Assembly: GCF_000940845.1 (NCBI RefSeq)
Contig: NZ_CP010341.1
Coordinates: forward strand, 2,340,001 to 2,372,000
Direction of reading: 5' to 3'
Source of the DNA: Propionibacterium freudenreichii subsp. freudenreichii
Lineage (GTDB): Bacteria > Actinomycetota > Actinomycetes > Propionibacteriales > Propionibacteriaceae
DNA length: 32,000 nucleotides
This document shows positions 3,740 to 23,809 of the stretch, piece after piece (the stretch's first letter is position 1; every line of letters begins with the position of its first letter). The notes under the pieces are model-generated. The model had not been told where the DNA came from, searched no databases, and worked only from the letters and a program-made list of their open reading frames with translations. Position numbers and translations under genes: made by a program.

Positions 3740-3919
3740 CCGCCATCGCAACCGCTTCCGGCGTCACGGGCCGCCCATCCGACCCGCTCCAGCACTGACC
3801 GCCGCGGCCGACTACTCCCGCACCGGCCTCCCACCCCCGCGCTGGCTACGCTGAGGAGTCGGGCCCGCCCCACGCGGCCGGGCCCGACCACCACGCACCC
3901 GTGAACGCCAGGAGATCCG

Positions 3920-4134: not shown

Positions 4135-6018
4135 TCAGCCCATGATCGGCAGGTCCTCGCGACTGCCGGCCTCCCAATCAAGCAGCAACAGGTGCTCGTC
4201 GCCACGCACCGGGATCGCCTGCGGAAAGCGCTCGGCACTCACCTGGCGACTCTTGTACCGCGCGTACTCGGGGGGCACCCGCCGACTGCCGACGCGCAGC
4301 CCCTCCTGCCAGGTGAGCTGCGCCTTGCCGTAGGGCGGCCGCAGGCTCAGCCGGTCGCCGGTCAGCGCCACGCGATGTTGCTTGAGCTGGTCGACGAAGG
4401 CCCCGATCGAACGGAACTCCCGCTCGTCGCCCAGCACCACCGCATATCCGGTGTGCACGCCACGCTGCACCACCTCGAACTCACTGGCGAGGTCCAAGGT
4501 GCTGGTCGCCACGATGCCCACATAGCTGCCGTCGCGGCTGCCGGCCACCCACGTCGGCCCCACCCGGGTGACGTCGAAGTCGACGAAGGGGAAGTGGATG
4601 TGCGTGTACAGGTTGCGGTTGCCCTCCAGGTGCCCGCGACGCCCCGACAGGTCGTACTGCACCAGCAACAGGTTGTCGCGCTGGGCGATGTCGGGGTTCA
4701 CGCCGTTGCCCACCCAGCCACCGCCGGCCCAGCCATCGGACGCGCGACCATTGGACGCGCCACCGGGAACCCCGTCGCCGACCGTGCGGAAGGCGGGATG
4801 GTTGCCGAACACGGCGATGCCGCCGGGCAGGCACGCCTGCCACAGGGCCTGCTGGTCGCCGAAGCCGCCGGGGTGATAGCTCTGCGCGCTGCTCAACAGG
4901 TAGGCGGGAGTGCGGAAGGTCTGCACATTGCCGCGCTGCAGCGCCATCCCGTCGGTCACCGGACGCAGCGCCCTCAGCAGCGGCGAGCGCAGGGACGCCG
5001 GCACCGCATCCAGTTGCGTCATTGACGCCAGGAAGCGGTTGGTGGACTGCTTGGCGCTCATCCGCACGGCGCGGGTGGCCGACACCACCTCGCGGTTGGT
5101 GAATGCCTGCATCGCCCACCAGAAGCGGGCCAGCGCGGCAGGTGAGGTGCGGGGGAAGTTGGGGTCGGCGGCCAACACCTCGGGAACCTCGTCCACGTCG
5201 AGGCCCTGGGAGGTGAGCACCCGCATGGTGGCATCGCTGGCGGCGATCTCACGCAACGCCAGCGGCACCTTGTAGCGGTGGCGGCACACGAAGATCGCGC
5301 CCAGCTGGTCGGTATCGATCAGCGGCAGGGCCGGGCCGTAGGCGGCATCCACGATCACCTGCGCCGCCGAGTGCTCGGGGTGCATGCGCACCATCGCGCT
5401 GGCGCTGGCCGACGCCGCCACGAAGCGTCCATCGAAGCGGTGCAGCGCCAGATCGGCCAGCAGCAGGTCGAGCACCATGCTGGCCCTGATCACCAGTTTC
5501 TCGTCGCGGGCGTAGTCGATCAGCAGGGTCAGCGCGGCCACGTCAATGGCGTAGCAGTCGCCCGAGAGCCATTCACTGAAGCCATAGCGGAATCGATCGC
5601 TGAGCCAGCGCACCACCCGCGTGGCCCCGTGGCCCAGCAGTTCCCCGCCGCGGCGACGCTCGTCGGTGAACGTGTTATCGACAAACTCCTGGCCGGCCAG
5701 GTATTCGCATACCGCGAAGCTGATCTGGTGGCTCTCGGTCCAGGTGCACATGGCGTCGCTGCCGGGATGGTCGACGTCGTAACGGAAGCCGAGGATGGCG
5801 GCGCGCACGCGGTCGCGCTGCTGGTCATCGAACTGCCCGCGACACTCGAACCATGTCTTGAGTAGGAGCAACAGCCGATGATCGGCCCGGTCGACGCGCT
5901 GATCGACGTCGCGGCACAGCCTTTCCACGTAGTGCTCGTCGCAGCCGGCCATGCCGTAGCCGGGCCACTCGGCTGCGCGGTGGGTGGGGACCTTTGTGGG
6001 AATGTCGTGCAGCGACAT
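4135..6018 (-). CDS. Large conserved hypothetical protein (weak resemblance to heparinase II/III-type polysaccharide lyases)
   Basis: ORF 4135..6126. Start placed at ATG 6018 (MSLHDIPTKV...) because AGGAGG lies upstream (reverse complement of 6023-6028). The helical N-half and beta-rich C-half (…YHPGGFGDQQALWQACLPGGIAVFGNHP…) suggest an alpha/alpha-toroid plus beta-sandwich; the functional call is weak. Confidence 0.8.
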   Translation of the reverse strand: MSLHDIPTKVPTHRAAEWPGYGMAGCDEHYVERLCRDVDQRVDRADHRLLLLLKTWFECRGQFDDQQRDRVRAAILGFRYDVDHPGSDAMCTWTESHQISFAVCEYLAGQEFVDNTFTDERRRGGELLGHGATRVVRWLSDRFRYGFSEWLSGDCYAIDVAALTLLIDYARDEKLVIRASMVLDLLLADLALHRFDGRFVAASASASAMVRMHPEHSAAQVIVDAAYGPALPLIDTDQLGAIFVCRHRYKVPLALREIAASDATMRVLTSQGLDVDEVPEVLAADPNFPRTSPAALARFWWAMQAFTNREVVSATRAVRMSAKQSTNRFLASMTQLDAVPASLRSPLLRALRPVTDGMALQRGNVQTFRTPAYLLSSAQSYHPGGFGDQQALWQACLPGGIAVFGNHPAFRTVGDGVPGGASNGRASDGWAGGGWVGNGVNPDIAQRDNLLLVQYDLSGRRGHLEGNRNLYTHIHFPFVDFDVTRVGPTWVAGSRDGSYVGIVATSTLDLASEFEVVQRGVHTGYAVVLGDEREFRSIGAFVDQLKQHRVALTGDRLSLRPPYGKAQLTWQEGLRVGSRRVPPEYARYKSRQVSAERFPQAIPVRGDEHLLLLDWEAGSREDLPIMG

Positions 6019-6218
6019 ACGCCTCCTAGGGGGGATCGAAGGTGTTTGAGTTGGTGGAAAAAACGATACGAACCGCCCCCCGGCCACAAATCGGCGCCCC
6101 GGCGATGAGTGCGGCAGGGGCCTCATTTAGGATCGCGAGACCTGCACTGGTGCAGCAGCGTGAAATGGGCGCTTTCCGGCACGAACCGGCGACGCAAACC
6201 GTTATCGCCGCAACGGTC

Positions 6219-6354
6219 GCCTGCCCTGTGGGTCGCTGACGGTCCACTCGCGACATCGTCCATGCGGGACGCCCACGCCCGGGGGCCTGCCCTGTGGGTC
6301 GCTGCCTCCCCGGAGGGCCCACCCAGCCGCCCGCGGGCACGCCCACCGCAGGGC
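6219..6354. repeat. Diverged tandem duplication (~67-69 bp x2) in the divergent intergenic region
   Basis: The 20-mer gcctgccctgtgggtcgctg occurs at 6219-6238 and 6286-6305. The unit ends are also similar (gcgggacgcccacgcc vs gcgggcacgcccaccgc). Confidence 0.6.
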
Positions 6355-6391: not shown

Positions 6392-7801
6392 ATGACTTCT
6401 ACCCGCCTGCCGTGGCCCACGATGCCCGGCGGCTGGGACCGCGAGGGTCCCGAGCCGGTGTCGCGTTGGGACGTGATGCTCACCGCCGCCCTCATGGTGG
6501 GCACCAGCTTCTGGGGCGACCTGATGGCCAACCACCAGGGCCACTATGTGGCGTCCGTGCTCACCTCGCTGGCGATCACCGCGCCGGTGGTGCTGCGGCG
6601 TCGGCGTCCCCTGCTCATGCTGGCGATCGTGTCGGTGGCAAGCCTCGTGCAGTGCGTCACCGTGTCGGGACCCACCGCCTCACTGCTGGCCGTGCCGGTG
6701 GTCGCCTATTCGGTGGCCAAGTGGGTCAGCGGCCACGACTCGCGCCTGGTGCTGCTCAGCGGCCTGATCGGTGCCGTCATCGGCCCGCTGCGCTGGATCG
6801 GGTCGGTGAACTTCGTCGACGGCTATGCCGGACGCGTCCGCATGCTCGTGCTGCTGTTCGTGATGTGCTTCGCGGCCGTGCTGGTGCCCTATCTCATCGG
6901 ACGCCGGGTGCGCGAGAACGACATCACGGGCCAGGAGCGGGCGCGCGCCGCCGAGCAGCGCTACCAGGCCGAGCTGGCCACCCGCGAGGAGCGGGCGCGG
7001 GCCACCGAGGCCCGGGTGCGCAATGACATCGCGCGCGAGCTGCACGATGTGGTGGCCCACTCGCTGAGCGTGATCATCGTGCAGGCCGAGGGGGGCAAGG
7101 CGCTGGCGCGCAAGAACCCGCCCGCGGCCGCCGAGACCCTCGACACCATCGCCGAGACCGGACGCGAGGCACTCACCGAGATGCGCCGCATGGTGGGCGT
7201 GCTGCGCGCCGGGCCGGGCGGCACCGAATATGCACCGCAGCCCGGCCTGGGCGACATCGCCGAGATGGTGCAACGCGCCGGCGACCGGGTGAGCCTGCAG
7301 GTCACCGGGGCCCAGCCCGCAGTGCCCGCCACCGTGGGGCTGGCCGCCTACCGGGTGGTGCAGGAGGCGTTGACCAACTTCTTCAAGCATGCCGGCCCGC
7401 AGGCCACCTGCCGGGTGCAGATCAACTACGGCGCGGCCGATATCGACATCGAGGTGGCCGACAACGGCATGGGTTCCAAGGCCCCCAATGACGGGGCCGG
7501 CAATGGGCTGAAGGGCATGCAGGAGCGCGTCGGGGCCGTCGGCGGAAAGCTGAATGCCCGCGCCCGGCGCACCGGTGGGTTCCAGGTGAAGGCGCTGTTG
7601 CCGATCGCCGCGAAGCCCCCGAAGGTCGCCACGTCAGAGCCCGCCAGTGCCCCGGCGCAGGCCGATGGCGGGGAGCCGGCCGACGGCGGGGTGCCGGCTG
7701 CGCAGCCCGCCGATCCCGCGCCGGAAGGTCGCGTCGATCGCGGAGCGCCGCATCAGGCGTCCCCTCAGGGGCCCGGGCACCACGACGGGCCGGTAGCGTG
7801 A
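6392..7801 (+). CDS. Sensor histidine kinase, HisKA_3 (NarX/DesK/LiaS) type
   Basis: N-terminal hydrophobic segments. H-box RNDIARELHDVVAHSLSVIIVQAEGG. HATPase_c boxes EALTNFFKHAG, VADNGMG, GNGLKGMQERV. Pro/Ala-rich C-terminal tail. Confidence 0.9.
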   Translation: MTSTRLPWPTMPGGWDREGPEPVSRWDVMLTAALMVGTSFWGDLMANHQGHYVASVLTSLAITAPVVLRRRRPLLMLAIVSVASLVQCVTVSGPTASLLAVPVVAYSVAKWVSGHDSRLVLLSGLIGAVIGPLRWIGSVNFVDGYAGRVRMLVLLFVMCFAAVLVPYLIGRRVRENDITGQERARAAEQRYQAELATREERARATEARVRNDIARELHDVVAHSLSVIIVQAEGGKALARKNPPAAAETLDTIAETGREALTEMRRMVGVLRAGPGGTEYAPQPGLGDIAEMVQRAGDRVSLQVTGAQPAVPATVGLAAYRVVQEALTNFFKHAGPQATCRVQINYGAADIDIEVADNGMGSKAPNDGAGNGLKGMQERVGAVGGKLNARARRTGGFQVKALLPIAAKPPKVATSEPASAPAQADGGEPADGGVPAAQPADPAPEGRVDRGAPHQASPQGPGHHDGPVA

Positions 7802-7834: not shown

Positions 7835-8497
7835 ATGTCTGATCCGATCACGGTCTTTCTGGCGGACGATCAGGAGCTGGTCCGCAGCGGGTTCCGCATG
7901 CTCATCGACGCCGAGGACGACATGGAGGTGGTCGGCGAGGGCGTCGACGGGGCCGATACCGTGCGCCAGATCGCCACGCTGCGTCCCGATGTGGTGCTGA
8001 TGGACATCCGCATGCCGGGCATGGATGGCGTGGAGGCCACCAAGCAGGTGGTGGCGCTGGACAATGGCACGAAGGTGCTGGTGCTCACCACCTTTGACCT
8101 CGACGAATATGTGTTCGCCGCACTCAAGGCCGGCGCCTCCGGCTTCCTGCTGAAGGACACCCGCCCGGCCGACCTGCTCAGCGCGATCCGTGCGGTGGCC
8201 GCCGGTGATTCGGTGGTGGCTCCCAGTGCGACGCGCCGGCTGCTCGACCATGTGGCGCCCACCCTGCCCGACCACGTGGGCGAGCCCGACGAGCGCCTCG
8301 ACGTGCTCACCGACCGCGAGCGCGAGGTGCTGGTGGAGGTGGCCAAGGGCGCCACGAACGCCGAGATCGCCACGAACCTGTTCATGGCCGAGGGCACCGT
8401 GAAGACCCACATCGGACGCCTGCTGGCGAAGTTGCATTGCCGTGACCGCGTGGGCCTGGTGCTGTTCGCCTATGAGACGGGACTGGCGCCCGCCTGA
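7835..8497 (+). CDS. Response regulator, NarL/LuxR family
   Basis: REC domain (ITVFLADDQELVR...DVVLMDIRMPGMDG) plus LuxR HTH (LTDREREVLVEVAKGATNAEIATNLFMAEGTVKTHIGRLLAKL). GAGGAG RBS before the ATG. Confidence 0.93.
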   Translation: MSDPITVFLADDQELVRSGFRMLIDAEDDMEVVGEGVDGADTVRQIATLRPDVVLMDIRMPGMDGVEATKQVVALDNGTKVLVLTTFDLDEYVFAALKAGASGFLLKDTRPADLLSAIRAVAAGDSVVAPSATRRLLDHVAPTLPDHVGEPDERLDVLTDREREVLVEVAKGATNAEIATNLFMAEGTVKTHIGRLLAKLHCRDRVGLVLFAYETGLAPA

Positions 8498-8600
8498 GGT
8501 GGGGCGGTTCGGCGTCGGCCATCCCCCCAGATATCGCCCTGCCGCCGGGCCCCGGCATCCTGCGGCCCACATGCTGCGATCCGCCGCCCTGTGGACACCG

Positions 8601-8648
8601 TTAGGTGGACAGTTGTGCGGCAATGACGCCGCACAGTTGACCACTTAG
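8601..8648. repeat. 48-bp palindromic intergenic repeat, inverted-orientation copy
   Basis: ttaggtGGACAGTTGTGCGGcaatgacGCCGCACAGTTGACCacttag. This is similar to the reverse complement of copies 1/2; the loop caatgac corresponds to the reverse complement of cgtcatt. Confidence 0.8.
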
Positions 8649-8734
8649 CGCCCGATCCGGGACCGCGGCCGCGTCGGCGTCCGGGTCGGCACGCTCCCCT
8701 CCGGCGCCGACCACCACCCCCGGCCGACCCCGTC

Positions 8735-8805
8735 CGGCCAACACGCGACACGAACGGGCAACACGCACCCCGTGCGGGCAACACCCGCGCGTGCTCGGAC
8801 AACAC
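8735..8805 (+). promoter_or_regulatory. Four phased direct repeats CGG-N-CAACAC upstream of the sigma-like gene
   Basis: CGGCCAACAC 8735-8744, CGGGCAACAC 8755-8764, CGGGCAACAC 8775-8784, CGGACAACAC 8796-8805. Spacing is 20, 20 and 21 bp. The last repeat ends 46 bp before ATG 8851. Confidence 0.55.
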
Positions 8806-8850
8806 CGGCGCACACACCTGCTCGGGAGGCTGTTGGGCAAGGAGGTCACC

Positions 8851-9816
8851 ATGACCACGCACCCGCAGTTCACCCGCCCCGTCGACGCAGAGGCCGCACC
8901 CCTGCATGCAGCGCGCACCTCGAGCACCGACATCGCCGTCGACAGCGCTCGTCCGGCCGGCATCGCCGCCCACACCAGCCCCACCGGACACACCGCGGCC
9001 ATCGGTCAGCTGGCCGAGGTCCGTCAACAGCGGGGCACGCCCACCCATGACGGAGCCATGATCCTCCAGCGCGCCGCTCAGCCAACCCGGCCGGGCACAC
9101 GACGCGCGGCCCGTCCCACCGAGGCACCCCTGACCCGCATCAGCGCGGGCACGCGGGTCTCCAGCGCCGACCCGGTGGTCGACGCGCTGCGCACCGAGTG
9201 GCAGGGATGGCGCGACCAGCCCCTCCCCGACGCATGGCGCTGCGCCTGCCCCGAGCTGGCGCAGGTGCCCAGCTTCCGGCAAGCACTCGAGGTGGCCTGC
9301 CTCGACGATGTCGCCGCCTTCCTGGTGATCGCCTGCCAGGGCGGGGGACGCCGCGCCGGCCGCCTGCTCGTCCAGGCACTCTTGCCACGACTGGCCGCGC
9401 AGGCCTCCCGTGACCGCCGCCACGAGGTGGGCGACTATGTCTCAACGCTGTGGGAGCTGCTGCACGACTTCCCCATCGAGCGTCGCACCCATGCTGTGGC
9501 CACCAACCTGGTGCTCGACACCCGCAAGCGCCTGCACCGTGCCGCGGGACGGGAGGTGCCCTGTTCGCAACCTCCCGAGCCACCCACCCCACCAGCCAGC
9601 AGCAGCCGGGAACGCGCCGCGGTGATCATCGACCTGGCGGCCCGTCGCGGACTCATCACCGCACCCAGTGCCGAGGTGCTGCGCAGCGTCTACCTGTACG
9701 GCCTGTCGGGACGCGAGGCCGCCGGACGACATGAGATGTCCGAGGACATGGTGCGCTACCGGTGCAGCTCGTCGGTGAAGCGCCTGCGCCGGCACATGAG
9801 CGATCTGGCGGGTTGA
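8851..9816 (+). CDS. Sigma-70-family-like protein with a long low-complexity N-terminal extension
   Basis: ORF 8791..9816. Start at ATG 8851 with AAGGAGG upstream. The C-terminal HTH resembles sigma region 4 (AEVLRSVYLYGLSGREAAGRHEMSEDMVRYRCSSSVKRLRRHM). The central segment (LLVQALLPRLAAQASRDRRHEVGDYVSTLWELLHDF) resembles region 2. About 140 aa of N-terminus is probably disordered. Confidence 0.6.
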   Translation: MTTHPQFTRPVDAEAAPLHAARTSSTDIAVDSARPAGIAAHTSPTGHTAAIGQLAEVRQQRGTPTHDGAMILQRAAQPTRPGTRRAARPTEAPLTRISAGTRVSSADPVVDALRTEWQGWRDQPLPDAWRCACPELAQVPSFRQALEVACLDDVAAFLVIACQGGGRRAGRLLVQALLPRLAAQASRDRRHEVGDYVSTLWELLHDFPIERRTHAVATNLVLDTRKRLHRAAGREVPCSQPPEPPTPPASSSRERAAVIIDLAARRGLITAPSAEVLRSVYLYGLSGREAAGRHEMSEDMVRYRCSSSVKRLRRHMSDLAG

Positions 9817-10074
9817 GCGGCCCGACACGCCAAGAACTTCAGAAGAATCTCAACCGGTTCTTGAGACTCCGCCACGCGTACCGGGCGCCAGATCCTGAGA
9901 GCGGGTCCAAAACTGAGAGCCAATTCTCACGTTCTGTTCATGTGTGTGTAGCATCGGACCAAGGTTGAGGGCTGATGCAGCACTCATTTCCCCGCACACA
10001 GCAGTCGCCGGGGGAATCGAGCAGAGCCGACCCACAACCGTCGTGAGGGTCCCCGGACCTTCACCCATAGACGC

Positions 10075-10120
10075 CCAGGGGGCTGTTGGGGGTGACCAGC
10101 AGCCCCTTGGTGCTTTTCTC
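10075..10120 (+). terminator. Strong intrinsic terminator
   Basis: CCAGGGGGCUGUUGG-GGGUGA-CCAGCAGCCCCUUGG: a 15-bp stem including G.U pairs and a 6-nt loop, followed by UGCUUUUCUCC. Only the + strand has the U-tail. Confidence 0.7.
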
Positions 10121-10236
10121 CTCCATGTCGTGCATCCCCTCGCCGACTGATGCCCCGCGTGCGCCGGCGGCAGCGCGATACGATTCGGATGCTCTCAGCG
10201 CCGACCCGTGCAAACCAATCGTTCGAAGGGGAGTAC

Positions 10237-12177: not shown

Positions 12178-15100
12178 TCATGCCAGCCGTGCGCGGGCCT
12201 GGCCCTCCATCACCTCCTGCAACAGTTCGACGGTCTCGTCCTGCAGGTCGACGCCCAACAGCCGTGCATGGCGGGTGATGTGCAACACGAGCCGCTCCAC
12301 CTCGAACCGGTTGCCGGCCAGGTGCTCGGAGCGCAACCGCAGGCGCAGCAACATCTCGTCCTCCGGGGCGGCGCTCAATGCCCGTGCCGCAGCCCACCGG
12401 GCGAGGTCGACGTTCCCGGCGGCCAGGCCGCGTTCCCCCAGGGTGACCCCGATGTCGCGGATGGTGCACACCATGTCGGTGCGCAGTTCCTCGGCCCAAC
12501 GCCATTCGCCGGGTGCCGCGTCGGCCAGTGGCGCGCCACGCACCATCGACAGGGCGGCCACCAGGGCCTCATCGCCGGCCTTGTTGACGCCCACCGAGAT
12601 CAGCAGCTGCAGCTGCTCCCAGTCGGAACTGACGCCGGGATGCAGCGCGATGTGGCCGGTGTAGGCATCGGGCAGATAGGGCTCGCCGGCCTCGTCGGCC
12701 CCCAACCAGGCACGCAGCCGCGACATGTTCGAGCGTCGGGTGGTGTCGGCGATGAGCAGGTCGCGTGTCATGCGCACGGCGTTCGATCCGGGATGGTGCA
12801 GGATCCATGCGCAGTATTCCTGGCACTGGCGCACGGCCCGGCTGGGCTGGCGTCCCCGGGTGTTGACCAGCTCAACCGGCCCCAGGATCTTGAGGAAGGG
12901 TGCATCTATCGGCGGCGCAAGCACGGTGGACTCCTCCGGTAATGAGGTGGCGGGAACGGTGGGTAGGGCGACGAGCGGCACATCCGCGCCGGCGGGTGGG
13001 CCGGCATGGGGGTCGCCGTCACCGTCGAAGCGCCACCACCACGCCTCCTCGTAGTCGGTGTCGTCCGCGGCGTCGAGCAGCTCGACGATGGCCCGGCGTG
13101 CCGGCGGCATCACCAGGTCGGGGGTGAACTCGGTGCCCCGCCAGCGGGCCCGGTCTTCGCCCAGTACGAGCGGGCACTCGTGCGCGTCGTCGTGGCAGAC
13201 CACCGCGATTCCCAGGCGCCGCAGCGCCTCCGGACTCTCGGTGCATGGGTCGTGCAGGAAGAACACGGCGGGCAACCAGGCGTCGCGCAGCTCCGGGTCC
13301 AGGCGCAGGACGTCGGCGTCGCGATCGGGGGGCAGGTTTCCGCTGCGGTGGGCGACCAGGGCCGCCAACCGCGCCGCCAGGTCGTCCTCGCTGGCCGCGA
13401 CGAGCAGGTTCGGTGCTTCGAGGCGTTCCAGCCAGCCACAGTCGGGTGGCACATGCACTTCGGCGACGGCCTGGTTGGCCGACAGCTGCACCGCCATGGC
13501 GGCGAACAGGCCGGTCACCAGTTCGGTGTCGGGGGAGCTGACCGCCAGCACCCCCAGGGATGCGAGGTCCAGGCGCACCGGGTCGTCCCCGGCGACGCCC
13601 AGCTGCACGGCCCCGCCGCCTGCGTCCTGCGGGATCAACCCACCGGGGCCCAGGTCGTCAGGGGCCGGGTCGTCAGGGTCCATGTCTTCAGGGCCCATGT
13701 CGTCTGGGCCCGGGCCACCGGCCTCGATGTCGCCACGGTGCGGGACACCATCAAGGCCCCCAGTGGCCGGATCAATCACCGAAGGGTCGCCACGGTCGCC
13801 AGTGCTGAGGCGTCCGACCGGCTCGTCCGGCCATGATCGATCAAGGGACGAGCTCCGGGCCCCGGGGCGGGAGATCTCGAGGACATCGGCCACATCGTCC
13901 GCGCCGGGCGCGCCGGGCGCGCCGTGCATGCCCCGCACCGACCCGGGCGACGCCGAGACCGCGGCAAGGGCCGCTCCGGCGCGGGCGCTGTCTGCACCCA
14001 CGGCGTGGCGGCGGCGTCCCAGCGGACGCGCATTGAGCTGCCAGCGACGCCGCAGTCCCAGCACGCCCAGTACGGCAGCGGCGGAGGCCGCCCCGATCGG
14101 GCCCACCAACGAGAGCACCTGATTGCGCACATCGCGCTGGCTGCTCAACACCGCTCCGTCGCGCGCGGCCTGCTGAGCGGGTTCCTCACCGGTCGCCGAT
14201 TCCGCCACTCCCGTCCAGCGCGCGATGTCCGAGGCGCCGGCCTCGTCTGATGACGCCTCGCGCGCGGAGGTCTCCTCGCCGGAAGACCCCTGCGATGCGG
14301 CGTCGTGCCCCTCGCCGGCGGATTCGCTCGCAGGCCCGTGCGCGCGTGCCGTGCCGGAACTCGCGTCGGCCACGGCATGGTCCCGGGATTCCTGCTCCCC
14401 GGCCGCTGGGTCGGCATCTGCTCCCACGCCACCGGCCCGGGCCACCTCGTCCGGCGCTGCTGCGTGGGCGTCGCCGCCTGCGTTTCCGGGCACCACGGCC
14501 CGAGCCCCGGTCCCTGTCCCGTCAACCAGTTGGAAGTCGGCACGCTGGGGGCCGGCCGGCTGTGAACCGGCCGTTGTGGCGGGCCCCTGCCCCGGTGCCA
14601 CCGCGGGCAGCACCAGGCGCTGTCCGGGGTGGATCAGGTCGGGTTGTGGCACCTCCCCCGCGTTCGCGGCGGCCAACAGGGGCCACTGCGCACCGCCACC
14701 CAGATGGGTCTCAGCCAGCTGCCACAGCGTGTCGCCCGGGGCGACGACAACATCGCCGCCGCCATGGCCGGCACCCGATGGATCCGGCGACGCGGGTGGC
14801 TCAGCGGGCACTGCCGCTTCCCCGTTCCCGCCCGCATCCGGCTGTCCGGCTTCGTCGGCCTGCCCCGTTCCGGTCGCTGGCCCAGCATCATCTGACAACC
14901 CGGCATCATCTGACAACCCAGCATCATCCGAGAACCCGGCGCCTTCCGGCGACCCTGGATCATCCGGCGACCCTGCATCGAGGGATGGCTCCGCCGACTC
15001 GTCCACACCGTCGTCGTCCGTCACGATGGCCGAACCATCCGGACCGCCGTCGGACAGGACGGCCACGCCGTCCGGATCGTCCTCGTCAGACGGGGCGTGC

Positions 15101-15888
15101 GCCCCGAACTCCTCATTGAGCAGCTGGACGGTCGAGTTGGCGACGGCCCCTTCGGATGCGTGCGATCCCTCGGGAACCGCCGTGTCCTGCAGGGCGTCGG
15201 GCACCGTCGCGCCGGGAATCTCGATCATCACGCCCACGGGCAGGGCGTCCACGGCGGAAAGCCCCAGCGTGGCGTTCGCCCCGACGATGTCGCGCCACTG
15301 TTCCCCGGCGCCGTAGTAGTGCTCGGCCAGGGTCCACAGGTCGTCACCGGAGACGATCTGGTGCCACTGGGAATCGGCCCGAGGGCTTGTTGCTGCCGAG
15401 TCGGTACGGGAATCCCGTGACGGTGCTTCCTGCGCATCTGCTGCGGCCAGGGGCGTCGCAGCCGCCGGCCCCTCCCCCGCTACTGACTCCGCAGACACTG
15501 CGGCCGACGTGGACGACACCGAGGCACAGGGCGCGGAGTTCGTCGCAGCCGATTGCACGCCGATCAGCCCGGCGATGGAGGCGACGAGCACGGCGGCGGC
15601 CGGACCGAACAGCCGTGATCCCGGAAGGCGCACCGAGATGCGGCCATGGCTCACCGCCGACAGTGCCTCGGCCACCACCGAGCCGGTGAGCATTGCCCAC
15701 GCGACCCAGCCGAGCACGGTGAGGGCCAACAACACCAGGGAGCCGTCGTCGGGACGCGAGAGGATGCCCGACCACTCGATGCTGAACAGCAGGTCTCCGC
15801 GGCCCCAGTGCACCAGGGCGATGGCCCCGCCGGGGACCAACGCGAGCAGCACGAGCAGGGACGTGACACTCGACAGGACTCTTCTCAT
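12178..15888 (-). CDS. Membrane-anchored LysM x2 / winged-helix + BTAD (SARP-like) fusion protein, last gene of the tad operon
   Basis: 1236 aa. Three N-terminal TM segments (approx. aa 5-27, 50-75, 93-113). LysM-like segments: HQIVSGDDLWTLAEHYYGAGEQWRDIVGANATLGLSAVDALPVGVMIEIPG (DNA 15211-15363) and VVVAPGDTLWQLAETHLGGGAQWPLLAAANAGEVPQPDLIHPGQRLVLP (DNA 14605-14754). Fourth TM VLSLVGPIGAASAAAVLGVLGL is followed by RRRWQLNARPLGRRRH. The C-terminal 239 aa (DNA 12181-12897), FLKILGPVELVNTRGRQPSR...MSRLRAWLG...DWEQLQLLI...EWRWAEELR...LLRLRLRSEHLAGNRFEVERL, fits OmpR-type wHTH plus BTAD. ATGA overlap with the upstream tadE-like gene. Confidence 0.85.
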   Translation of the reverse strand: MRRVLSSVTSLLVLLALVPGGAIALVHWGRGDLLFSIEWSGILSRPDDGSLVLLALTVLGWVAWAMLTGSVVAEALSAVSHGRISVRLPGSRLFGPAAAVLVASIAGLIGVQSAATNSAPCASVSSTSAAVSAESVAGEGPAAATPLAAADAQEAPSRDSRTDSAATSPRADSQWHQIVSGDDLWTLAEHYYGAGEQWRDIVGANATLGLSAVDALPVGVMIEIPGATVPDALQDTAVPEGSHASEGAVANSTVQLLNEEFGAHAPSDEDDPDGVAVLSDGGPDGSAIVTDDDGVDESAEPSLDAGSPDDPGSPEGAGFSDDAGLSDDAGLSDDAGPATGTGQADEAGQPDAGGNGEAAVPAEPPASPDPSGAGHGGGDVVVAPGDTLWQLAETHLGGGAQWPLLAAANAGEVPQPDLIHPGQRLVLPAVAPGQGPATTAGSQPAGPQRADFQLVDGTGTGARAVVPGNAGGDAHAAAPDEVARAGGVGADADPAAGEQESRDHAVADASSGTARAHGPASESAGEGHDAASQGSSGEETSAREASSDEAGASDIARWTGVAESATGEEPAQQAARDGAVLSSQRDVRNQVLSLVGPIGAASAAAVLGVLGLRRRWQLNARPLGRRRHAVGADSARAGAALAAVSASPGSVRGMHGAPGAPGADDVADVLEISRPGARSSSLDRSWPDEPVGRLSTGDRGDPSVIDPATGGLDGVPHRGDIEAGGPGPDDMGPEDMDPDDPAPDDLGPGGLIPQDAGGGAVQLGVAGDDPVRLDLASLGVLAVSSPDTELVTGLFAAMAVQLSANQAVAEVHVPPDCGWLERLEAPNLLVAASEDDLAARLAALVAHRSGNLPPDRDADVLRLDPELRDAWLPAVFFLHDPCTESPEALRRLGIAVVCHDDAHECPLVLGEDRARWRGTEFTPDLVMPPARRAIVELLDAADDTDYEEAWWWRFDGDGDPHAGPPAGADVPLVALPTVPATSLPEESTVLAPPIDAPFLKILGPVELVNTRGRQPSRAVRQCQEYCAWILHHPGSNAVRMTRDLLIADTTRRSNMSRLRAWLGADEAGEPYLPDAYTGHIALHPGVSSDWEQLQLLISVGVNKAGDEALVAALSMVRGAPLADAAPGEWRWAEELRTDMVCTIRDIGVTLGERGLAAGNVDLARWAAARALSAAPEDEMLLRLRLRSEHLAGNRFEVERLVLHITRHARLLGVDLQDETVELLQEVMEGQARARLA

Positions 15889-20774: not shown

Positions 20775-21808
20775 GGTCGGGGCCTCCCGGTTGCCAGCGG
20801 CGGGTCCACGGGGCCGGCCATCCGATCGCGAGCGCCCGGGGTGACGCCGGCGGACTGTACGGGTGCCCGGCCGATGCTCCCTGTCAGCGGGTCATGCGAT
20901 CGGGAGGTCCCCGTCGCGAGGTCACGGGAGGAATTCGGTGTGGCGATCACGCGGGCCGAGACGGCCGATGCCGCCGCACTGGCACTGCGCATGAATGAGC
21001 GCTCACGGAAGCGGCGCGGCTCGTCGCCACCCTCGCTGAGCACGGCGGCCTCCTCGGGCTGCCAGGCCATGTCGGCAACCACCGGCACGCCGAATTGGGC
21101 CTCCACGTCGCCATCGGAATAGGGCCGCGAGGGGCCCACCACGAGCAGCCCCAGCTTCGCCGCAGGCGCCAGGGCTGCCGTCCGCTCACGAAGGGGCGGC
21201 AGGTGGAGGCGGGCGGCGGCCAGTGACCGCAGTGAGCTCCGCACCACCATCAGCACCACGTCCGCGGCACCCAACAGCGCCGAAGGCAGGCCCTGATGGC
21301 CGACGCGCCCGGCATCCACGATCACGTCGACCCCGCTGCCGGCCAGGCCGGCGAGGGCCTCGGCGACTTCGGGCCAGACGGGATCGAAGACCGCGACCGA
21401 TCCCGGATGGGAGAACCCGGGCAGGAACTGCCGGGCGACGGGGCGGGACTCCGCCACGGCCGGGGCGCCGGGCCGCTGGTCGGCGATGGGCTGCCCCGTA
21501 GCATCGAACCGGCCCATGGCCTGGTCGGGAACGCCAGCCGATCCGGCGGGCGCGTCGTCCAGCAGGGAGACCGTGCGGTCCCACAACAGCGGGGCCACCG
21601 GACGCATCTCGCGGTGCGCCTGGGCAAGTTCGACCAGGCCGCGCGTGGCCAGCGGCCGTGCGCCGAGCCAGCCCGCCTGCACGGTCTGGGAGACATCGCG
21701 ATCAGAGTCGACCAGCAGCACATCGCGCGGCCAGCACAGGGTGAGTGCCAGGGCACTGGTGGTCACGCCGGGTGATCCGGTGGCGCAGGTGAGCAGGACG
21801 ATGGCCAT
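20771..21808 (-). CDS. tadZ: TadZ/CpaE-like (Ssd-like) ParA/MinD-superfamily protein with a deviant P-loop
   Basis: MAIVLLTCATGSPGVTTSALALTLCWPRDVLLVDSD...: GSPGVTT stands in place of the canonical KGGxGKT. Located directly upstream of tadA (ATGA overlap). Confidence 0.75.
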   Translation of the reverse strand: MAIVLLTCATGSPGVTTSALALTLCWPRDVLLVDSDRDVSQTVQAGWLGARPLATRGLVELAQAHREMRPVAPLLWDRTVSLLDDAPAGSAGVPDQAMGRFDATGQPIADQRPGAPAVAESRPVARQFLPGFSHPGSVAVFDPVWPEVAEALAGLAGSGVDVIVDAGRVGHQGLPSALLGAADVVLMVVRSSLRSLAAARLHLPPLRERTAALAPAAKLGLLVVGPSRPYSDGDVEAQFGVPVVADMAWQPEEAAVLSEGGDEPRRFRERSFMRSASAAASAVSARVIATPNSSRDLATGTSRSHDPLTGSIGRAPVQSAGVTPGARDRMAGPVDPPLATGRPRP

Positions 21809-22362
21809 CAGGCTGCCGTCCCGTGCACCACGACGAGACGTCCCGCCGCGGCCAGCGTCGCGATCCGCAAGGAGGCACCGGCCGGCACGTCCAGGTCGAA
21901 GTTCCAGGAGCCGTCGGACTGACGGCTCGGGGTGCCCACGATGGTGGCCGGCACGCTCAGCTGCTCAGCCCTGAAGCTGGCGTCATCGGTGGGCCCGGGG
22001 GCGGCCGAGATGATCACGGCCGAACCGGCCACAAGATCACCGGGAACGCGGCCGGCCACGAGGTGGACCCCCACGTGATGGCGCCCGGGACGCACGGTCT
22101 CCTCGCCCAGGGCGCTGGCCGGCACCAGCATGCCCTGCTGCAGTTCCACCAGGGCGGTGGTGCCGATCAACGTCGACAGCTGTTCGGCCCCGATGGTGGC
22201 GACGCCGGGCGCCGAACCGATGCTCGTGGTGCCCAGGTCGGCGCCGTCAATGGTGGCGCCACGCGGCACGGCGCGCACCATGACCACGACCTGGCGGGCG
22301 TCGGTTGCCTGGTGCCAGGCCACGGCGCAACCAAGTCCGCCGAGGCAGGCACAGAGCACGCC
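21808..22362 (-). pseudogene. cpaB: cpaB/rcpC-like Flp pilus assembly gene, C-terminal fragment (interrupted by the IS)
   Basis: Residual ORF ...G-VLCACLGGLGCAVAWHQATDARQVVVMVRAVPRGATIDGADLG... (TM helix then SAF-like domain). The reading frame continues upstream into the IS end with no start codon. Its 5' part lies at 23810-23902. Confidence 0.8.
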
Positions 22363-22370: not shown

Positions 22371-23809
22371 GGGTCTTCTCAGATGAGGGTGTAGGTCGGC
22401 CGGGCGCGTCGGTCCGCAGATAGACGTCGAGGTCTCCCGACGATGGAGGTTCCTACGCCATCCATCCGAAAGACCTCGACGTGTCCGACGCTACCCCGCC
22501 GGCCGGCTTCGGCCGCCCTGACCTGACCGCCTTCGCTCGACTCGACGGCCTCGGTCTGAGCGTGACCGGACAACGACTTGAACCGGATCGTGCGGTCCTC
22601 GCGTGCCGCGTGGTGGAACCAGATCAGTGGTGCCGACGGTGCGGCAGCGAAGGCGCTGCTCGTGACACCGTGATCCGGCGGTTGGCCCACGAGCCGCTGG
22701 GCTGGCGACCGACCGTGCTGGAAGTTGTAGTGCGCCGCTACCGCTGTGCCGACTGCGGACACGTGTGGCGCCAAGACACCAGCGCCGCGGCGGAGCCACG
22801 CGCGAAGCTCTCGCGCACCGGGCTGCGGTGGGCGCTGGAAGGGATCGTGGTCGCACACCTCACCGTCGCCCGTGTCGCCGAGGGACTCGGGGTCGCGTGG
22901 GACACCGCCAACAACGCGGTCCTGGCTGAAGGCAAGCGGCTGCTGATCAACGACCCCACGCGGTTTGAGGGCGTGAAGGTCATTGGCGTCGATGAGCACG
23001 TCTGGCGCCACACCAGGCGTGGCGACAAGTACGTCACCGTGATCATCGACCTCACCCCGGTCCGCGATGGCGCCGGCCCAGCAAGGCTGCTGGACATGGT
23101 CGAGGGCCGGTCGAAGGCGGCGTTCAAGACCTGGCTCGCCGACCGCGACGACGCCTTCCGTGACGCGGTCGAGGTGGTCGCGATGGACGGCTTCACCGGG
23201 TTCAAGACCGCCGCTGCAGAGGAGATCCCGGACGCGGTCACGGTGATGGATCCCTTCCACGTCGTGCGCCTGGCCGGTGACGCCCTCGACAGGTGCCGGC
23301 GCCGGGTCCAACTCGCGATCCACGGGCACCGTGGGTTCAGGGACGACCCGCTCTACAAGTCGCGGCGCACGCTGCACACCGGCGCGGACCTGCTCACCGA
23401 CAAGCAGAGCGACAGGCTACGCGCGCTGTTCGTTGATGACGCTCACGTCGAGGTCGAGGCGACCTGGGGTGTCTACCAGCGCATGATCGCCGCCTATCGC
23501 CACGAGGACCGGCAACGTGGCCGCGAGCTCATGGAGAAGCTGATCACCGACCTCAGCGCCGGCGTCCCCAAGGTGCTCACCGAGCTCACCACCCTGGGCC
23601 GGACCCTGAAGAAGCGAGCCGCTGACGTGCTCGCCTACTTCGAACGACCCGGCACCAGCAACGGGCCGACCGAGGCGCTCAACGGACGGCTCGAACACCT
23701 GCGCGGCTCCGCACTCGGGTTCCGCAACCTGACCAACTACATCGCCCGAAGCCTGCTCGAGACCGGCGGCTTCAGACCCCAACTCCTACACCCCCGATTG
23801 GGATGAGCC
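22371..23809 (+). mobile_element. ISL3-family insertion sequence (1439 bp)
   Basis: Single transposase ORF. Terminal inverted repeats GGGTCTTCTCAGATGAGGGTGTAGG (22371-22395) and the reverse complement of 23785-23809, GGCTCATCCCAATCGGGGGTGTAGG, match at 18/25 positions and begin like typical ISL3 ends (GGCTCTT-like). An 8-bp direct duplication flanks the element. Confidence 0.88.
22481..23806 (+). CDS. ISL3-family transposase
   Basis: 441 aa. N-terminal zinc-finger pattern CRRCG...CADCGH, then VIGVDEHVWRH...YVTVIIDL...VVAMDGFTGFK...VMDPFHVV... and TSNGPTEALNGRLEHLRGSALGFRNLTNY, all characteristic of the ISL3 DDE transposase. The stop codon lies inside the right IR. Confidence 0.93.
   Translation: MSDATPPAGFGRPDLTAFARLDGLGLSVTGQRLEPDRAVLACRVVEPDQWCRRCGSEGAARDTVIRRLAHEPLGWRPTVLEVVVRRYRCADCGHVWRQDTSAAAEPRAKLSRTGLRWALEGIVVAHLTVARVAEGLGVAWDTANNAVLAEGKRLLINDPTRFEGVKVIGVDEHVWRHTRRGDKYVTVIIDLTPVRDGAGPARLLDMVEGRSKAAFKTWLADRDDAFRDAVEVVAMDGFTGFKTAAAEEIPDAVTVMDPFHVVRLAGDALDRCRRRVQLAIHGHRGFRDDPLYKSRRTLHTGADLLTDKQSDRLRALFVDDAHVEVEATWGVYQRMIAAYRHEDRQRGRELMEKLITDLSAGVPKVLTELTTLGRTLKKRAADVLAYFERPGTSNGPTEALNGRLEHLRGSALGFRNLTNYIARSLLETGGFRPQLLHPRLG

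Follow-up and report, generated by a model that had tools for sequence, protein, structure and literature searches.

A conserved direct-repeat array as a probable activator-dependent promoter of a divergent ECF-like sigma factor gene in Propionibacterium freudenreichii, with a SARP-fold membrane protein as candidate binder

Introduction

To our knowledge, SARPs are known almost exclusively as streptomycete antibiotic regulators. They act on direct repeats with a spacing of 11 or 22 bp, and 8 bp separate the 3' repeat from the -10 element (PMC10936776). In the afs box, which extends from -40 to -19, AfsR makes contact with each repeat over its first 8 bp, and a weak CACTGT serves as the -10 element (PMC10936776). 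Direct repeats are also the target of MtrA, for which the consensus is (G/T)T(G/A)ACC-N5-GT(G/T)AC (PMC5650626). ECF sigma factors that lack an anti-sigma factor are often controlled at the level of transcription by two-component systems (PMC8999054).

Here, an array of direct repeats was analysed in a 32-kb stretch of DNA, referred to as the window, from Propionibacterium freudenreichii, a dairy and probiotic species. Positions are counted from the first nucleotide of the window, and other loci are referred to by L numbers. The array lies upstream of a gene for a sigma-factor-like protein, and the initial annotation had likened it to the sites bound by SARP-type activators. A full-text literature search for the box sequence returned primer noise only, and the literature searched contained nothing on the box motif, on the sigma-like family, or on tad pili or their regulation in Propionibacterium freudenreichii.

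Results

Four boxes can be read directly on the + strand upstream of the sigma-like gene (8851..9816, +, 321 aa). These are box 1, CGGCCAACAC (8735..8744), box 2, CGGGCAACAC (8755..8764), box 3, again CGGGCAACAC (8775..8784), and box 4, CGGACAACAC (8796..8805), and their starts are separated by 20, 20 and 21 bp. The initial annotation had reported four same-strand repeats starting at 8735, 8755, 8775 and 8796, and the direct reading and the shuffle tests agree in supporting it. The pattern CGGNCAACAC matches six times in the 32-kb window, the expectation from dinucleotide shuffling being 0.43, and none of 100 shuffles reached six. When a weight matrix was used, a cluster of four hits within 75 bp was seen in none of 300 dinucleotide shuffles, the maximum being two hits (in 2/300), so that the comparison with shuffled DNA that had been proposed as a check on chance phasing never reproduced the cluster of four. 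One detail needs correction: box 4 ends 45 nt from the start codon (8805 to the ATG at 8851) and not 46 bp as first given. Two further elements had been overlooked, namely a degenerate, promoter-proximal box 5, GCGCACACAC (8808..8817, +), 12 bp past box 4, and the conserved hexamer GAGGCT (8826..8831, +), 8 nt past box 5. The boxes are asymmetric, and no inverted half-site was found within those of the window.

Orthologous loci were obtained by means of the sigma-like protein (13 loci), with one more (L021) added by means of the SARP protein described below, giving a total of 14. The array is present upstream of the sigma-like gene in all 14 of these protein-found loci, at protein identities down to 33%; repeats and phasing, whose conservation in orthologs had been put forward as a check, are thus conserved in every orthologous locus obtained. 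A DNA-pattern scan of metagenomes was too permissive and returned at least 120 loci, mostly AAC low-complexity repeats, with at least 12 genuine high-GC arrays among them. Nine of the metagenome arrays listed precede further sigma-like genes, and a tenth pattern-derived array at a sigma-like promoter (L032a) is on the contig of one of the remaining three. Taken together, every one of the 24 sigma-like genes whose upstream DNA could be read is preceded by same-strand CGGACAACAC boxes, the protein identity ranging from 33 to 100%; this count is partly biased, as the array pattern itself had led to 10 of the 24 loci.

Alignment of 28 arrays on their last box gives the consensus CGGACAACAc-N11-CGGACAACAc-Ct-cgGaCAACAC-C.g.tCG.-nAG.cT, in which the box motif is cGGaCAACAc. 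All boxes in the 28 arrays are on the coding strand. Relative to the last box, they start only at offsets 0, -12, -33, -53/-54, -75 and -96, with no intermediate half-sites, so that the proximal pair is spaced by 11-12 bp and the upstream boxes are 20-22 bp apart. The sequence between the boxes is unconserved, and a search for weak half-sites inside the 21-bp units across the aligned arrays found none. On this ladder, box 1 of the window has the offset -73, the position of box 3 is occupied in 89% of 27 arrays, and that of box 4 in 93% of arrays. Box 4 is also the closest to consensus among the boxes of the window, with a matrix score of 19.1. At the position of box 5, 85% of arrays have a strong box, and the window has a degenerate one, as do its close relatives L001 and L002.

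Additional arrays are found directly beside the sigma-like gene, downstream of it, in L021, L032 and L097. In L032 (7369-7431 on the array strand) and L097 (810-872 on the array strand), this second array precedes a small ORF or RNA with the shared motif RLCCA..ALA.RVP, which is a putative further target of the same promoter type. An orphan array of four boxes in L045 (array strand, 3761-3824) lacks a sigma-like gene within 14 kb and is directed into the 3' end of a gene that converges on it. Its -10 hexamer, GGGACG, departs from the conserved pattern, and the array may be a copy in decay or may drive an unannotated transcript.

The hexamer that lies exactly 8 nt past the last box follows the pattern nAnnnT, with A at its second position in 26/28 arrays and T at its sixth in 27/28. 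In L039, L063 and L032 the ATG of the sigma-like gene, which opens the full-length protein, is found 6-7 nt past the hexamer, and in L007 the alignment gives the same spacing at the called start codon. The four mRNAs are accordingly leaderless, and it follows that the hexamer is the -10 element and that the boxes are upstream of the transcript. The element has the A(-11)/T(-7) signature recognised by housekeeping sigma factors, plus a conserved G at -14. From the distance of 6-7 nt between hexamer and start codon in the leaderless orthologs, transcription in the window is predicted to start at about 8838..8839 (+). A Shine-Dalgarno sequence, AAGGAGG, can be read directly at 8840..8846 (+) and is retained in L001 and L002.

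Numbered from the predicted start, box 1 extends from about -103 to -94, box 2 from about -83 to -74, box 3 from about -63 to -54, box 4 from about -42 to -33 and box 5 from about -30 to -21. The box cores are centred at about -98.5, about -78.5 to -79.5, -58.5, -37.5 and -25.5, the last of these being the degenerate one. A generic scan of the array region detected no sigma-70-type promoter with a -35 element, and the place of such an element is occupied by box 4. In the kinase operon next door, a canonical leaderless -10 element, TAGGCT, precedes the ATG by 7 nt, and for this reason GAGGCT can be seen as a weakened form of the local consensus. A weakened element is as expected for an activator-dependent promoter. 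There is thus very good reason to regard the array as a conserved, activator-type promoter element of the sigma-like gene. We infer the binding of a protein to the boxes, activation by such binding, and the identity of the binder considered below.

Residues 105-321 of the sigma-like protein form a divergent ECF-type pair of sigma2 and sigma4 domains. The predicted structure has pLDDT values above 95 for residues 110-230 and 260-320, in keeping with this two-domain architecture. Residues 1-100 or so (window 8851-9150) are predicted to be disordered, with pLDDT below 50, and this N-terminal extension of about 100 residues is missing from most orthologs, which are 216-270 aa long. The top Foldseek matches are mostly ECF sigma factors (SigL, AlgU, sigma-E and SigH); their probabilities are 0.93-1.0, but the E-values are weak (0.007-0.05) and the TM scores low. 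A profile of the family matches region 4 of SigL at E 0.003. The window protein has no match in Pfam, including Sigma70_r2/r4, at E 0.01, and the family has only sub-threshold Pfam matches to region 4, in 11/13 members. In NCBIfam, the homolog P0259 reaches 29.4 bits for TIGR02937, the cut-off being 42.9, and the window protein has no such match. The protein is therefore a divergent ECF-like protein that falls below every curated ECF threshold. Its family comprises 148 clusters (at 50% identity) matching at E <= 1e-30, and the recognition helix of region 4, VRYRCSS, is invariant in an alignment of 13 sequences.

There is no anti-sigma gene alongside the sigma-like gene. Downstream of it are genes for an MFS transporter and a MarC protein, and then, on the opposite strand, those for a LysM protein and the tad pilus. 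A hairpin at 10072-10113 (within 10040-10120), with the conserved loop GCCCAGGGGGYTG-TTGGGGGTGACCA-GCAGCCCCCTGGTGC followed by a U-rich tail, is found upstream of the MFS transporter gene in seven lineages (the window, L001, L002, L007, L008, L010 and L143). It has 95% identity over 41 nt to Brooklawnia cerclae, where the sigma-like gene is absent, and shows a compensatory change from C:G to T:A in L007 and a fold z-score of -3.5. The region 9817-10160 has no match in Rfam even at E <= 1, and the hairpin is a candidate leader, attenuator or small RNA. Upstream of it, at 9920-9958, there is a conserved promoter-like stretch, CAATTCTCA...TGTGTGTAGCATCGG, with a -10 element TAGCAT (TAGTAT in relatives). 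Together with TGAGAG/TCTCA repeats at 9848-9930, this may be a promoter for the MFS gene or the leader, with an operator.

The LysM protein is a membrane protein of 1236 aa (12178..15888, -). Its C-terminal 260 aa (12181-12960) have the fold of a SARP, and it is this domain that we consider as the candidate box-binding activator. The AlphaFold model of the 260 aa has a pLDDT of 91.2, and the top Foldseek matches are AfsR in its transcription initiation complex (8K60, 8HVR) and EmbR (2FF4, 2FEZ), with E-values of 2e-6 to 2e-5 and TM scores of 0.62-0.66 over 256-264 aligned columns. On the basis of the model, the C-terminus would consist of a winged helix and an all-helical BTAD, that is, a SARP domain. 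Pfam gives no match to Trans_reg_C or BTAD even at E <= 1, NCBIfam gives none, and no match to the sequences of solved structures was found by single sequence or by profile; one homolog of the domain is named 'bacterial transcriptional activator domain-containing protein' by NCBI. The winged helix and BTAD assigned to this tad-linked membrane protein in the initial annotation are thus upheld at the level of the fold but have no counterpart in Pfam or among the sequences of solved structures. In the translation, hydrophobic segments flank the LysM region, which suggests that LysM faces outwards and that the SARP domain is cytoplasmic.

The SARP domain family is widespread, and its gene is usually the last one of actinobacterial tad loci. 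The window, L001, L002/L018 and L007 have it next to the sigma-like module, these being only three lineages in which it is near an array, and in L001 and L007 it is present without tad genes. No SARP gene was found within 6-8 kb either side of the array in L005, L008, L011 and L013-L017, nor on the 12 metagenome array contigs listed. In L021, a second array, again with an 8-nt gap and with the hexamer CAGTCT, is found just past the sigma-like gene; it is directed towards the flp/tad operon, the flp gene being about 370 nt away, and this operon ends with the LysM and SARP genes. The L020 tad locus has a SARP gene and no sigma-like gene, and neither arrays nor other direct repeats were found upstream. 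A second array was looked for near the tad genes of the window and none was found. The first of these genes, a SAF-domain gene (21808..22359, -), has a gene for an ISL3-family transposase (22481-23806, +) about 120 bp upstream, and the lack of a second array in the window could be due to the ISL3 insertion, which may have displaced the native tad promoter.

On its other side, the sigma-like gene is adjoined by a two-component system, made up of a histidine kinase (DUF7134, HisKA_3, HATPase_c; 6392..7801, +) and its cognate NarL/GerE-type response regulator (7835..8497, +), which is 100% identical to a Propionibacterium freudenreichii protein and is a rival candidate for the binder. Such a pair adjoins the sigma-like gene in five lineages (the window/L001/L018 group, L007, L011, L017 and L063), and none was found within 6-8 kb either side in L005, L008 and L013-L016. 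Orthologous systems in Propionicimonas paludicola and Brooklawnia cerclae are accompanied by neither a sigma-like gene nor arrays. A search for a shared motif upstream of the kinase genes found only the leaderless TAGGCT -10 element and a direct repeat specific to the window, and no boxes. This repeat, CTGCCCTGTGGGTCGCTG, is 18 bp long and occurs twice, about 60 bp apart, within 6225-6330; unrelated to the boxes, it may be a site of autoregulation by the NarL-type regulator. The divergent neighbour of the kinase gene (4135-6126, -) encodes a protein of 663 aa that has no Pfam or NCBIfam match. Its homologs are 72% identical in L001 and 46% identical in L011, and in L143 an unannotated protein likened to it by size and position is found at the same place; it is a putative conserved partner of the two-component system. 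At 8599-8650, in the interval from the regulator gene to the box array, there is an imperfect 23-nt inverted repeat (CGTTAGGTGGACAGTTGTGCGGC / GCCGCACAGTTGACCACTTAGCG, 78% complementary, with a 6-nt loop) that is not followed by a U-run and that could be the terminator of the kinase/regulator operon, or an operator.

Discussion

The initial annotation had proposed a direct-repeat architecture of the SARP type, and this is borne out by the conserved phasing, by the spacings of 11-12 and 20-21 bp, and by the position of the last repeat, 8 bp from the -10 element. The best overall explanation, which we put forward tentatively and rate at somewhat below an even chance, is that this is an activator-dependent promoter of the sigma-like gene with the SARP domain as the most likely binder. 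A protein that binds direct repeats head to tail would occupy the two proximal boxes in place of a -35 contact, and would bring in RNA polymerase with the housekeeping sigma factor, in the way that AfsR, a SARP, acts at the afsS promoter. With their distance of two helical turns and their position on the same face of the helix, the boxes further upstream would serve to load more copies of the binder cooperatively. The binder would be the LysM membrane protein encoded 3.4 kb away, through the SARP domain at its presumably cytoplasmic C-terminus. The result would be a cascade leading from a sensor that faces the cell wall to an orphan ECF-like sigma factor, and in at least one relative boxes of the same kind would drive the tad pilus operon too.

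As to the binder itself, the SARP protein is the best single candidate, although we rate it at less than an even chance. It is favoured by the fact that in L001, L002/L018 and L007, as in the window, its gene adjoins the sigma-like module, and by the second array of L021, in front of a tad operon that includes the LysM and SARP genes. The link between a tad-associated sensor and the sigma-like factor that the initial annotation had suggested gains from this one relative, although it still depends on an inferred binder. The small number of lineages in which the gene is near an array argues against this assignment, as do the L020 locus, where tad and SARP genes are present and both arrays and sigma-like gene are missing, and the tad genes of the window, which have no second array. 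In addition, the assignment of the domain depends on a predicted fold that is missed by Pfam and by comparison with the sequences of solved structures, the two proximal boxes are 12 and not 11 bp apart, and the proximal box is degenerate in the window. The box sequence is also unlike any SARP heptamer known to us.

Several other readers of the boxes have to be weighed against the SARP domain. The only constant partner of the array is the sigma-like protein itself. It could read the boxes as a sigma factor whose promoters are laid out unusually, or else as an activator derived from a sigma factor and binding by its region-4 helix-turn-helix, giving positive autoregulation and a small regulon that in some species includes the tad pilus operon. 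The array accompanies all 24 sigma-like genes with readable upstream DNA (with the bias noted above for the 10 loci found by pattern), it stays with them in L013-L016 where the neighbours vary freely, and second arrays follow the sigma-like gene immediately in L021, L032 and L097, while L020 has neither gene nor arrays; the invariance of the VRYRCSS helix fits as well. An AAC core is typical of the -35 elements of ECF sigma factors, and the boxes have such a core. In known ECF promoters, however, 16-18 nt separate the AAC of the -35 element from the -10 element, and here the AAC of the box at -37.5 is 22 nt from the hexamer and that of the box at -25.5 is 10 nt from it, a geometry that does not suit a self-recognised ECF promoter. 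The -10 element moreover carries the housekeeping signature with G at -14, and we know of no precedent for a sigma factor that reads a ladder of 3-6 boxes at 21 bp. Overall, we consider it rather unlikely that the sigma-like protein is the reader. A similarly low probability is given to the NarL/GerE-type regulator, which when phosphorylated would bind the boxes as dimers every two helical turns and so switch on the sigma-like gene; for this, SigE under CseBC would be a precedent. Its gene pair adjoins the sigma-like gene in five lineages, and across lineages it is 73-78% identical where the sigma-like protein is only 33-47% identical, in keeping with an invariant box; the common control of orphan ECF genes by two-component systems (PMC8999054) also points this way. 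Against it, the pair is missing near half of the arrays, its orthologs in Propionicimonas paludicola and Brooklawnia cerclae do without sigma-like gene or arrays, the regulator is far commoner than the arrays (>6000 close homologs), and its own operon promoter has no boxes. BvgA-type arrays with a 22-bp period are known, and the 21-bp period fits, but a NarL/BvgA array of inverted heptads was rejected in view of the asymmetry of the boxes, which have no inverted copy and no weak site at the half period. A box inside the spacer, at -25.5, is also unusual for the NarL family.

Tandem direct repeats of 11-12 bp that replace the -35 element are a hallmark of winged-helix proteins of the OmpR/PhoB type, and no single candidate gene adjoins the array in all loci. 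Both points would suit an unlinked DNA-binding protein conserved in Propionibacteriales, for example a regulator of the OmpR family. There is no OmpR-type gene among the window genes tested, and MtrA was rejected as its consensus (PMC5650626) fails to match cGGaCAACAc; an unlinked binder is, in our judgement, distinctly improbable. Least credible, to the point of being very nearly dismissed, is the idea that the repeats are a leader element, active in RNA, or a functionless product of chance or mutation. The one point in its favour is the intergenic location. A role of the boxes in RNA is excluded by the leaderless orthologs, in which they lie wholly upstream of the transcript, and the window has no Rfam match at the gathering threshold; as to chance, shuffling never reproduced the cluster, and it is the boxes that are conserved and not the sequence between them.

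The present analysis defines a new and sharply conserved regulatory motif, cGGaCAACAc, and a promoter layout in which boxes are 21 bp apart, the final pair is 12 bp apart and the -10 element comes after another 8 bp. It is the promoter of ECF-like sigma proteins, a family that every curated model has missed, and it links this family with tad pili and with a LysM membrane protein that has a SARP-fold domain. If the SARP domain is indeed the binder, a membrane-tethered, cell-wall-facing SARP that drives a sigma factor would broaden the role of the SARP family. The proposed circuit is short, with three named candidate proteins and one DNA target of 100 bp.

Comparison with known systems

In Streptomyces coelicolor, SigE with CseBC and SigQ with AfsQ1/Q2 (PMC8999054) resemble the present locus in that an ECF-type gene without an anti-sigma neighbour is adjoined by a two-component system, and in that the promoter appears to depend on an activator and not on its own sigma factor. 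They differ in that the neighbouring regulator is here of the NarL type and not the OmpR type, and that the sigma-like family is below every curated ECF threshold. The link of the two-component system to the promoter is also only putative here, the pair being missing in half of the lineages.

A second resemblance is to the Pho boxes of PhoB/PhoP, where the -35 element gives way to direct repeats in tandem, of 11-bp period, and the site is extended by upstream units, and for an activator that is anchored in the membrane and binds direct repeats ToxR is a precedent. In contrast to PhoB and ToxR, the motif is different, the window has no OmpR-family gene among those tested, and the DNA-binding domain of the candidate is C-terminal and accompanied by a BTAD domain.

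The closest system is the afs box, at which AfsR acts on afsS in Streptomyces coelicolor (PDB 8K60, 8HVR). The present array departs from SARP promoters in the sequence of its box, GGACAACA, in a proximal spacing of 12 bp and not 11, and in having up to six boxes. Its target is a sigma-factor-like gene (plus the tad operon in one relative) and not an antibiotic cluster, and the candidate, unlike known SARPs, is a membrane-anchored LysM protein that Pfam misses and for which binding is predicted only. What the two have in common is the use of same-strand direct repeats, with about 8 conserved bp each, of which the proximal ones are about one helical turn apart and cover about -41 to -22. In both, the 3' repeat is 8 bp from a weak nAnnnT -10 element (CACTGT in afsS) and there is no usable -35 element; as in SARP promoters, more repeats are found two turns upstream, and a SARP-fold protein is encoded nearby. 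The array conforms to the published SARP geometry, with a new box sequence and a proximal spacing of 12 bp.
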